From Escherichia phage FriedrichZschokke: a DNA stretch of 64,000 nt. Position numbers and translations under genes: made by a program. The notes beneath the pieces are model-generated. The model ran no database searches. It saw nothing but the letters and a program-made list of their open reading frames with translations, and was not told where the DNA came from. Shown piece after piece: positions 39,918 through 40,939 of this stretch (position 1 is its first letter; each line of letters starts with the position of its first letter). The stretch is taken from sequence record MZ501067; one strand, 5' to 3'.

Positions 39918-39993
39918 TGGTCGAGGCAGTAGGGATCGAACCTACGACCCAGGACTTAGAAGGTCCTTGCTCTTCCTTCTGAGCTATGCCCCG
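39918..39993 (-). tRNA. tRNA-Arg (anticodon TCT), CCA encoded
   Basis: Manually folded cloverleaf: acceptor CGGGGCA/TGCCTCG, anticodon loop CTTCTAA, T-arm GTAGG-TTCGATC-CCTAC. Confidence 0.8.
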
Positions 39994-39997
39994 TAAT

Positions 39998-40073
39998 TGG
40001 GGTGACCGATGGGAGTCGAACCCATGACTACGAGAATCACAATCTCGAGTTCTACCAACTGAACTACGGCCAC
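39998..40073 (-). tRNA. tRNA-His (anticodon GTG), CCA encoded, C73 discriminator
   Basis: Cloverleaf: acceptor GTGGCCG/CGGTCAC, anticodon loop TTGTGAT, T-arm ATGGG-TTCGACT-CCCAT. Confidence 0.75.
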
Positions 40074-40187
40074 ATTAATACCTACTCCAACAATCAAGAT
40101 GTCTTCACACGAAATTAAGAGAAGAGTGATCAGTTCAACCCCTATAATCGCGTCAAGTAGATATTAATGTGACAGTTGTCACAAATT

Positions 40188-40262
40188 TGGCGGACGTGAT
40201 AGGATTCGAACCTATAACCAATCGCTTAACAGGCGATCGCTCTGCCATTGAGCTACACATCC
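40188..40262 (-). tRNA. tRNA-Asn (anticodon GTT), CCA encoded
   Basis: Cloverleaf: acceptor GGATGTG/CACGTCC, anticodon loop CTGTTAA, T-arm ATAGG-TTCGAAT-CCTAT. Confidence 0.75.
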
Positions 40263-40266
40263 AAAT

Positions 40267-40353
40267 TGGTGGGGAGTGGTGGAGTCGAACCACCCGAGTC
40301 GCAATGACAATGGATTTACAGTCCACACCGCTACCTCTACGGGATAACTCCCC
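40267..40353 (-). tRNA. tRNA-Tyr (anticodon GTA), long variable arm, CCA encoded
   Basis: Acceptor GGGGAGT/ACTCCCC, anticodon loop CTGTAAA, variable arm with GTC/GAC stem, T-arm GGTGG-TTCGACT-CCACC. Confidence 0.75.
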
Positions 40354-40366
40354 TTAATTCTTAATT

Positions 40367-40441
40367 TGGTGGCCCTGGGTGGAATTGAACCACCATCTGG
40401 CGATTATGAGTCGCTTGCTTGAACCTTCCAGCTACAGGGCC
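40367..40441 (-). tRNA. tRNA with CAT anticodon (Met, or Ile2 if lysidine-modified), CCA encoded
   Basis: Acceptor GGCCCTG/CAGGGCC, anticodon loop CTCATAA, T-arm GGTGG-TTCAATT-CCACC. Confidence 0.7.
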
Positions 40442-40442
40442 T

Positions 40443-40518
40443 TGGTGCTGATTGACGGAATCGAACCGCCGACCTTCTCATTACAAGTGAGTTGCTCTAC
40501 CTACTGAGCTAAATCAGC
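40443..40518 (-). tRNA. tRNA-Thr (anticodon TGT), CCA encoded
   Basis: Acceptor GCTGATT/AATCAGC, D-arm GCTCAGTAGGTAGAGC, anticodon loop CTTGTAA. Confidence 0.8.
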
Positions 40519-40523
40519 AAAAC

Positions 40524-40613
40524 TGGCGGAGGCGATAGGATTTGAACCTATGAGTCGCCGGAGCGACTGCCGGTTTTCAAGACCGGTGCATTAAACCACT
40601 CTGCCACGCCTCC
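40524..40613 (-). tRNA. tRNA-Ser (anticodon TGA), class II with long variable arm
   Basis: Acceptor GGAGGCG/CGCCTCC, anticodon loop CTTGAAA, long variable arm, T-arm ATAGG-TTCAAAT-CCTAT. Confidence 0.8.
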
Positions 40614-40615
40614 AG

Positions 40616-40689
40616 TCTCCATACAAGGATTTGAACCTTGGACCTCCTGATCCCAAATCAGGCGCTCTACCAAACTGAGCTACACGGAG
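40616..40689 (-). tRNA. tRNA-Pro (anticodon TGG), 3' CCA not encoded
   Basis: Acceptor CTCCGTG/TATGGAG, anticodon loop TTTGGGA, T-arm CAAGG-TTCAAAT-CCTTG. Confidence 0.8.
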
Positions 40690-40699
40690 TAAATTAAAT

Positions 40700-40773
40700 T
40701 GGAGCGGATAATGAGAATCGAACTCACATCATCAGATTGGAAGTCTGAGGTAATACCATTATACGATATCCGC
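40700..40773 (-). tRNA. tRNA-Gly (anticodon TCC), U73 discriminator, CCA encoded
   Basis: Acceptor GCGGATA/TATCCGC, anticodon loop CTTCCAA, T-arm GTGAG-TTCGATT-CTCAT. Confidence 0.8.
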
Positions 40774-40778
40774 AAATT

Positions 40779-40865
40779 TGGTGCGAGAAGTGGGACTCGA
40801 ACCCACAAGGAAATCATTCCGCAGCATTTTAAGTGCTGTGCCTTTACCAATTTGACCATTCTCGC
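40779..40865 (-). tRNA. tRNA-Leu (anticodon TAA), class II, CCA encoded
   Basis: Acceptor GCGAGAA/TTCTCGC, anticodon loop CTTAAAA, long variable arm, T-arm GTGGG-TTCGAGT-CCCAC. Confidence 0.8.
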
Positions 40866-40866
40866 G

Positions 40867-40939
40867 CTGGGAATAAAGGACTCGAACCTTTGCATCCTGG
40901 AATCAAAATCCAGTGCCTTACCAACTTGGCTAATTCCCA
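40867..40939 (-). tRNA. tRNA-Gln (anticodon TTG), 3' CCA not encoded
   Basis: Acceptor TGGGAAT/ATTCCCA, anticodon loop TTTTGAT, T-arm AAAGG-TTCGAGT-CCTTT. Confidence 0.8.

Follow-up and report, generated by a model that had tools for sequence, protein, structure and literature searches.

Introduction

In phage T4 (NC_000866 / AF158101) the tRNA operon has the order Gln-Leu-Gly-Pro-Ser-Thr-Ile-segB-Arg-rnaD-rnaC, a homing endonuclease gene (segB) being lodged between two tRNA genes; in T2L, the genes of a CAT-anticodon tRNA, of tRNA-Tyr and of tRNA-Asn are present and segB is absent (Brok-Volchanskaya et al. 2008, PMC2330249). According to the same study, SegB prefers to cut at a sequence of 27 bp located at the tRNA-Asn 3' end, and SegB homing replaces about 1250 bp, the Met, Tyr, Asn and Arg genes included; cleavage and loss of the region on co-infection with T4 have been shown for T2L only (PMC2330249). 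The subject of this paper is the tRNA operon of Escherichia phage FriedrichZschokke, analysed in a stretch of 64,000 nucleotides (nt) of sequence record MZ501067, which is called the window throughout and to whose positions all coordinates refer. The window very probably carries a segB-free, tRNA-rich allele of the Tequatrovirus (T4-family) tRNA operon, because its flanks are collinear with T4 at 91–95%, eleven tRNA genes and the SegB site are present, and a homologue of SegB is absent. What remains new in this region is a helix-closed leader RNA coupled to a tRNA-His that has no G-1 and is not needed for codons, together with a tRNA-Arg carrying a G3·U70 pair.

The tRNA Cluster and Its Comparison with T4 and T2

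Exactly eleven tRNA genes are found by ARAGORN in the window, all on the minus strand between 39918 and 40939, with no further tRNA anywhere else in the 64 kb; all eleven lie above the gathering threshold of Rfam RF00005 (29 bits), ten of them at 59–74 bits (tRNA-His at 65 bits) and tRNA-Tyr, marginally, at 30.3 bits. The two programs thus return the same set, in the order and with the anticodons proposed in the original prediction, the Tyr, Asn and His genes being all accepted on the reverse strand:

40866 to 40939, minus strand, tRNA-Gln (UUG), CCA not encoded
40779 to 40865, minus strand, tRNA-Leu (UAA), CCA encoded, same sequence as in T4
40700 to 40773, minus strand, tRNA-Gly (UCC), CCA encoded, same sequence as in T4
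40615 to 40689, minus strand, tRNA-Pro (UGG), CCA not encoded, same sequence as in T4
40524 to 40613, minus strand, tRNA-Ser (UGA), CCA encoded (TAA there in T4)
40443 to 40518, minus strand, tRNA-Thr (UGU), CCA encoded
40367 to 40441, minus strand, CAT-anticodon tRNA, best read as tRNA-Ile2, CCA encoded, its first 20 nt or so alone matching T4 tRNA-Ile
40267 to 40353, minus strand, tRNA-Tyr (GUA), class II with a long variable arm
40188 to 40262, minus strand, tRNA-Asn (GUU), identical to that of T2 and slur07
39998 to 40073, minus strand, tRNA-His (GUG), G1-C72, C73, CCA encoded, U at -1
39918 to 39993, minus strand, tRNA-Arg (UCU), T2-type allele and not that of T4, with G3·U70

The 3' ends of tRNA-Gln (...CCCAG-C-GCG) and tRNA-Pro (...GGAGA-CTG) are without CCA, which is encoded by the other nine; the earlier statement that these two alone lack it is borne out, as is the description of a tRNA-His with C73 but no encoded G-1, a T being found at position -1.

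The window resembles T4 in the slot occupied by the operon (between trna.2 and e.8), in its strand and in the order of the eight common specificities; in both phages rnaD and rnaC follow tRNA-Arg, and Gln and Pro are without CCA. It differs from T4 in having no segB and in having three more tRNAs and a 94-nt leader RNA; furthermore, the Ile and Arg genes of T4 are different alleles, identical to those of the window at 54 of 85 and 54 of 87 aligned positions, respectively. Positions 39071–39963 align to T4 e.8-rnaC-rnaD and the 3' part of Arg at 91.5%, and positions 40422–41500 align, at 94.7%, to the stretch that runs from the 5' end of T4 tRNA-Ile (about 20 nt) through trna.2/trna.3, with no T4 homology between the two blocks. 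Since the breaks fall about 20 nt into the CAT tRNA and inside tRNA-Arg, an Ile'-segB-Arg' cassette in T4 stands against Ile2-Tyr-Asn-spacer-His-Arg in the window. The claim that T4 carries segB in the Ile-Arg interval, where the window has three tRNAs, holds as far as it goes; the difference from T4 is larger than was supposed, as it takes in the Ile and Arg alleles too. Alignment confirms both that segB is absent from the window and that T4 does not have the same tRNA complement, and the ORF (open reading frame) list and tblastn agree with the earlier view that no endonuclease-like ORF lies in the interval. This contains Tyr, Asn, a 114-nt spacer and His, none of its ORFs exceeds 86 amino acids and each listed ORF overlaps tRNA genes; in a tblastn search of the whole window for homologues of SegB, GIY-YIG or HNH proteins none was found (best E = 0.35; best E = 2 for the T4 SegB query).

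The 27-bp SegB site, reconstructed from the five differences to the tRNA-Ser site that are listed in the text of PMC2330249, is found once in the window:

40186 to 40212, minus strand, preferred SegB recognition site, 27 bp, GGTTCGAATCCTATCACGTCCGCCAAA, exact match at the tRNA-Asn 3' end

The site includes the motifs GGTTCRANTCC and CCAR, the former being a core motif present in nine of the eleven tRNAs and in rnaC as well. Given this exact match, the window is to be regarded, on the sequence, as an uninvaded segB-free allele, that is, as a putative empty homing target. In the lineages of T4 and T6, SegB would have cut at the T-arm/CCA end of tRNA-Asn, and repair would have brought in segB together with its own flanking Ile and Arg alleles.

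The phage T2 (T2/T2L, LC348380) is like the window in being segB-free, with the order CAT tRNA-Tyr-Asn-Arg; its tRNA-Asn is identical, preferred SegB site included, and its Arg allele is the same but for position 3. However, T2 has neither tRNA-His nor leader (its Arg begins 4 nt after Asn), lacks Thr, and has additional ORFs both within the cluster and after it. In slur07 Arg also begins 4 nt after Asn, and a GIY-YIG gene takes the place of Pro; in teqhad a possible HNH gene takes that of Gln. T6 (MH550421) has the order Tyr-segB-Arg, with segB where the window has Asn-leader-His, and possesses seven tRNAs, those for Pro, Ser, Asn and His being absent, along with an Arg allele of the T4 type; its tRNA-Tyr, like that of the window, lies downstream of Thr and the CAT tRNA.

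Codon Demand

Codon usage was compared between 68 ORFs of the window (16,668 codons) and 39 genes of E. coli K-12 (15,015 codons). The A-ending codons read by the eight T4-type tRNAs have phage to E. coli ratios of 10.5 (AGA), 4.5 (ATA), 3.6 (ACA), 3.5 (TCA), 3.1 (GGA), 2.6 (TTA), 1.75 (CCA) and 1.6 (CAA); at the level of amino acids, Tyr (1.89) and Asn (1.78) are the most enriched in the phage, whereas His is depleted (0.68). The pattern is sharper in the late baseplate block (plus strand, 45755–63992), where His amounts to 10.4 per 1000 against 24.0 per 1000 in E. coli. The original prediction had proposed a comparison of codon usage, late genes included, with the supplied anticodons; its outcome is that codon supply fits ten of the tRNAs and, His codons being depleted in the phage, is not the explanation for tRNA-His.

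The CAT-anticodon tRNA, for which both Met and Ile2 had been considered, is best read as an Ile2-type tRNA (a putative lysidine-dependent reader of AUA) rather than as Met. It combines the CAU anticodon with C4-G69, C5-G68 and an ileX-like anticodon arm, and these two pairs are reportedly determinants of TilS; its best matches in E. coli (about 81% over the full length) are annotated as tRNA-Ile, and ATG, at 0.89 of its E. coli usage, does not share the enrichment of ATA. The label Met, found in GenBank and in the 2008 paper (PMC2330249), was given by anticodon only.

Two further differences from the T4 alleles may be recorded. The anticodon arm of tRNA-Gln belongs to an allele other than that of T4, all five stem pairs being different and the loop being UUUUGAU instead of CUUUGAC; UUUUGAU is presumably also the loop of E. 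coli glnU. Moreover, tRNA-Ser and the Ile2-type tRNA have their CCA encoded, unlike the T4 alleles (T4 Ser ends in TAA), so that this phage should rely less than T4 on the host RNase BN / CCA-adding pathway.

tRNA-Tyr and Possible Counter-Defence

A function other than codon supply has been demonstrated for a close relative of one of the three extra genes. The nuclease Septu cleaves tRNA-Tyr in its variable loop and is countered by the tRNA-Tyr of T6, which has been detected by northern blot; T4, devoid of tRNA-Tyr, cannot escape Septu, and T6 is sensitised by deletion of its tRNA-rich region (Chihara et al. 2026, PMC13096335). The window tRNA-Tyr is identical to that of T6 at 86 of 87 positions, and its variable arm is the same as that of T5 tRNA-Tyr, which is reported to be resistant to retron-Eco7 (PMC13096335). 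By analogy with the near-identical T6 gene, it would also refill the tRNA-Tyr pool under cleavage by Septu or retron-Eco7. The gene is about 97% identical to its counterparts in rV5-like phages (Murica, rV5_ev168, MaxBurger) and in Salmonella phage GRNsp7, 91% to that of Cronobacter phage CR3 and 84% to that of T5; such a distribution points to one phage-type tRNA-Tyr apparently spread horizontally among unrelated virulent coliphages.

It is a substantial possibility, short of being the probable one, that the three extra tRNAs, and tRNA-His above all, serve mainly as counter-defence supplies or decoys against tRNA-cleaving nucleases and not for codon supply. The rescue of infection under Septu by the T6 gene, the variable arm in common with T5, the spread of tRNA-Tyr across unrelated phage families, which would indicate selection, and the scarcity of His codons in the phage, in late genes especially, are all in its favour. 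It may be added that of the four GUN tRNAs in the queuosine family, the class which colicin E5-type anticodon nucleases have as substrates, three are represented by these genes, namely Tyr(GUA), Asn(GUU) and His(GUG); this pattern is a post-hoc observation. On the other hand, Tyr and Asn are the most phage-enriched amino acids, so that their tRNAs are explained by codon supply alone, and no defence nuclease directed against tRNA-His or tRNA-Asn was found for E. coli phage defence. The anticodon loops of the window His, Tyr and Asn tRNAs are the same as those which we take to be the host's. On this comparison, they carry no evasion mutations of the kind described in PMC10264068.

The Leader RNA and tRNA-His

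The comparison with T2 and slur07, in which Arg follows Asn after 4 nt, defines in the window an insertion of 194 bp made up of the 114-nt spacer, tRNA-His and a few flanking bases. Two elements are recognised in the spacer:

40074 to 40167, minus strand, 94-nt structured RNA element (the leader), a 13-bp closing helix round two hairpins, ending at position -1 of tRNA-His
40168 to 40183, minus strand, perfect palindrome TGTGACAACTGTCACA where the Asn module meets the His module, folding into a 6-bp hairpin as RNA

The spacer has a minimum free energy of -32.7 kcal/mol (z = -4.4), and the leader is predicted to fold independently of tRNA-His. Across 13 distinct leader sequences the 24 predicted pairs comprise 309 cells, every one of them a standard pair, and six pairs are changed on both sides; the covariation score is reached by none of 500 shuffles, and slid controls pair 40–52% of cells. 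About 21% of the paired cells are G·U, and on the tRNA-sense strand there is no other kind of non-Watson-Crick cell; as these would be A·C on the opposite strand, selection acts on the tRNA-sense RNA. The same observation rules out that the leader is a DNA-level inverted repeat resembling a miniature inverted-repeat transposable element. Two other candidates were rejected, namely a sigma-70 promoter (no -10 box stands at the proper spacing from the conserved TTGACG) and a small ORF (the element contains none, and its substitutions are compensatory pairs, not codon-periodic).

The leader and tRNA-His are common to Tequatrovirus, Karamvirus, JD18-type Klebsiella phages and Gelderlandvirus, and the 114-nt spacer is matched by 355 records in all, 197 of them at 95% identity or more. 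Wherever tRNA-His is present, the gap between the leader and G1 is 0 nt; in the JD18-type phages the leader starts 2–3 nt past the CCA of an upstream tRNA-Gln. Lying inside the tRNA transcription unit and abutting the 5' end of a tRNA, it would, as predicted, be released by RNase P cleavage. No record annotates the leader as an RNA, a few listing under it a spurious ORF or the edge of a tRNA-Gln, and a search of positions 40074–40187 against Rfam 15 gave nothing at E <= 5 except the adjacent tRNAs. The leader and tRNA-His may thus be described, by comparison of genomes, as a separate 194-bp module inserted between Asn and Arg and common to other phage genera.

More distant loci retain the closing helix around unrelated interiors (IMG/VR loci L112, L128 and L150, and Cronobacter phage CR3). 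When the helix alone is aligned over eight types, both partners have changed in 8 of 13 pairs, and each observed measure lies beyond the reach of all shuffles; this alignment was assembled by hand, with strands picked by position, and carries some risk of bias. The match of CR3 to the leader covariance model is marginal (12.9 bits), its closing helix being visibly similar.

Some side observations concern the same element. In CR3 (Certrevirus), about 62 nt of the interior of the Gln-His spacer (L037 7943–8005) recur at 78–84% in three unrelated siphoviruses, Sa179lw, gmqsjt-1 and S5 (genomes of 46–72 kb), where nothing is annotated. In Salmonella phage STP4-a (L010 408–545) the leader is intact and tRNA-His is deleted after its first four bases (GTGG), which are followed by unrelated sequence and then by tRNA-Asn. 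Within the window, the covariance model gives one weak match on the plus strand (24871–24957; 20.5 bits, E = 0.066) with several broken pairs, probably due to chance.

The palindrome at 40168–40183 matches the CRP core TGTGA-N6-TCACA and is the only such match in the 64 kb (0.08 expected). A CRP site is not demonstrated, since 8 of 100 shuffles give a core match and the right half alone is conserved in other genera; a similar hairpin is seen in STP4-a, and the palindrome is treated here as a junction hairpin.

As for tRNA-His itself, the bacterial-type GUG anticodon and C73 are found, while the encoded G-1 opposite C73, a near-universal identity element, is missing: a T stands at position -1 both in the window and in each of the 14 leader-linked loci compared, as against G in E. 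coli hisR (80% identical). G-1 is the main determinant of histidyl-tRNA synthetase (HisRS; review PMC9976931). In a sample of IMG/VR selected by a pattern of the tRNA-His 5' half, 66 tRNA-His genes have G-1 and nine have U-1; in loci that contain four or more tRNAs the figures are five and nine. Four of the U-1 genes in the sample are without a leader and begin 1 nt past the preceding tRNA, which weakens the proposal that the leader helix is a requirement for a G-1-less tRNA-His. G-1-less tRNA-His is thus recurrent in tRNA-rich phages, and the leader is not strictly needed for it. Loci with such U-1 genes include L021 6207–6284 and IMG/VR loci L046, L054, L063, L119 and L148, and T5 is among the phages concerned.

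We tentatively suggest, with more doubt than conviction, that the leader, together with the G-1-less tRNA-His, constitutes a mobile RNA module not described before, in which the leader would be a functional RNA (a cis element determining how the tRNA-His 5' end is formed and recognised, or a released small RNA) and tRNA-His would serve a role other than codon supply, for instance counter-defence or decoy, the RNAIII-tRNA-His pair of T5 being analogous. The same module can be viewed, less favourably to a function, as a selfish or neutral mobile RNA cassette whose tRNA-His is not a working translational tRNA. This would agree with a tRNA-His that is without G-1 and not needed for codons, and with a unit that moves between genera and is flanked by an inverted repeat: T2 and slur07 are without the 194-bp module, which Karamvirus, JD18-type Klebsiella phages and Gelderlandvirus possess and of which CR3 has a divergent form, the leader interior is swapped across phages for unrelated sequence with the terminal inverted repeat retained, and in STP4-a the leader has outlived its tRNA-His. 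We nevertheless consider it unlikely: tRNA-His reaches 65 bits with the Rfam model and shows strong conservation between genera, the G·U pairs place selection on the RNA rather than on an inverted repeat of the DNA, U-1 genes for tRNA-His turn up in several lineages of tRNA-rich phages, and the U-1/C73 tRNA-His of T5 is an amber suppressor once its anticodon is changed (GenBank), so that tRNAs of this kind are chargeable in E. coli. Finally, that some of the eleven cloverleaves are pseudogenes or software false positives, chiefly tRNA-Tyr with its score just above the Rfam threshold, is effectively refuted by its detection by ARAGORN, by its regular acceptor, anticodon and T stems, by its conservation at 95–100% in hundreds of phages (about 97% in the rV5-like ones), and by the T6 copy, different in one base, which is detected on northern blots and functional (PMC13096335).

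The G3·U70 Pair of tRNA-Arg

The acceptor stem of tRNA-Arg(UCU), next to the His module, contains G3·U70 as well as G2-C71, G4-C69 and A73, a combination listed for bacteria as the acceptor-stem identity set of alanine (PMC9976931); the T2 and slur07 genes have A3-U70. The window tRNA-Arg may be mischarged by alanyl-tRNA synthetase (AlaRS), with partial alanine charging. The stretch across the tRNA-His/tRNA-Arg junction, G3 included, is matched at 99% or more by at least 212 records, some over part of the query. We considered whether G3·U70 is a scar left by insertion of the His module; the linkage is perfect in ten genomes, but the proposal is weakened by SHFML-26 and OES_C-2, in which the same G3·U70 allele adjoins seg-type endonuclease genes.

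The Operon and Its Expression

The operon runs on past the coordinates of the original prediction, to include the two stable RNAs known from T4 and a terminator-like hairpin:

39797 to 39916, minus strand, homologue of T4 rnaD (species 2 stable RNA), immediately following tRNA-Arg
39652 to 39790, minus strand, homologue of T4 rnaC (species 1 stable RNA), its T-arm being tRNA-like
39574 to 39600, minus strand, hairpin resembling an intrinsic terminator, GCCCCGACCGAAAGGTTGGGGC and then UUUUU, where the operon ends

By analogy with the biology of T4, a single minus-strand transcription unit would begin a short way downstream of trna.2 and reach the terminator at about 39574, and its transcript would contain the eleven tRNAs, the 94-nt leader RNA with its closing helix and, as stable RNAs, rnaD and rnaC. 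It would be cut and matured by host RNase P, by 3' nucleases (RNase BN in the classical T4 work) and by the CCA-adding enzyme, the latter presumably required for Gln and Pro; the Ile2-type tRNA would need host TilS for the reading of AUA. A MotA-box-like TGCTTAA upstream of tRNA-Gln was dropped as a candidate promoter, because transcription would start inside the tRNA, and no promoter is annotated in this T4 region in AF158101.

Several points weigh against reading the locus as a tRNA-rich allele of the T4-family operon. No promoter was identified, sigma-70-like matches between 39300 and 41400 being four against 4.1 expected from shuffles; with none above background, the single-transcript model rests on the analogy with T4. 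The host codon reference is a sample of 39 genes, and a simple rule of length served to call the ORFs of the phage. The alanine identity pair might compromise the fidelity of tRNA-Arg, and a translational role of tRNA-His, in which G-1 is missing and whose codons are under-used, is no more than putative. Lastly, we infer the direction of evolution, which may have been invasion of an eleven-tRNA ancestor by segB or a later gain of tRNAs.

Distribution and Mosaic Structure

The window belongs to Tequatrovirus, its nearest records being vB_EcoM-101117BS1 and REP1 (about 98.8% identity across 15 kb). At 97–99% identity and in unchanged order, the eleven genes are annotated in JK38, PhiZZ23, wV7, slur02, 101117BS1, T-01 and others; the Tyr-Asn-spacer-His block is covered to at least 80% in 186 phage records, and 126 phage records cover at least 80% of T4 segB. 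The eleven-tRNA arrangement is thus common and already annotated, and the cluster as such is not new. No tRNA genes are present in the stretch of phage Felix O1 that was compared. Literature searches returned nothing on eleven-tRNA clusters of Tequatrovirus or on the stable RNAs of T5, and the leader RNA, rnaC and rnaD are annotated in none of the eleven-tRNA relatives inspected.

All of the 40 best matches to a 1.8-kb query (window 39400–41200) are split into at least two aligned pieces. The three relatives inspected (L001, L002, L003) each have at least one extra ORF that the window is without; the insertions lie at 39574–39604 (474 nt), right after tRNA-Arg at 39917 (348 nt) and at 41045–41057 (516 nt), none of these points being occupied in the window. 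Around the 474-nt insertion the 31-bp terminator region is present in duplicate, as is suggestive of a cassette-like insertion. Pfam gave no match for the 474-, 348-, 516- and 402-nt ORFs of the relatives; the clear endonucleases among the ORFs of this region are only the slur07 ORF (GIY-YIG) and T4 segB, the HNH match of the 609-nt ORF of teqhad being below threshold. The region is, in short, a mosaic hot spot, in which the window represents a lean combination of known modules.

Comparison with T5 and Significance

The gene list by itself adds nothing, since hundreds of T4 relatives carry the cluster and both SegB homing and the biology of phage tRNA-Tyr have been published. The window is of value as a clean reference allele, in which the eleven tRNAs are found with the SegB target intact and with none of the endonuclease or ORF insertions of its relatives; it is, as such, a natural recipient for homing or counter-defence experiments. 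The His module, for its part, makes it possible to test how a G-1-less tRNA-His is matured and charged in E. coli.

The nearest parallel to this module is provided by T5 (AY543070), where RNAIII, a 106-nt RNA described in GenBank as a 'stable RNA with unknown functions', is placed directly 5' of a tRNA-His which, as in the window, has U at -1 and C73 and which, according to the GenBank note, becomes an effective amber suppressor when its anticodon is changed. The covariance model of the leader (R1) gives no match to RNAIII, even with filters off on a 551-nt stretch of T5, and RNAIII is best regarded as a positional and architectural analogue of the leader, with no homology detected. The likeness lies in a predicted closing helix (12 bp in RNAIII, 13 bp in the leader) round internal hairpins; the two differ in that T5 has three unpaired bases between helix and G1 and three internal hairpins, against one and two, respectively, in the window. 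Together with rnaC and rnaD of T4 and with RNAI and RNAIII of T5, the leader makes the role of the stable RNAs embedded in phage tRNA operons a testable question.

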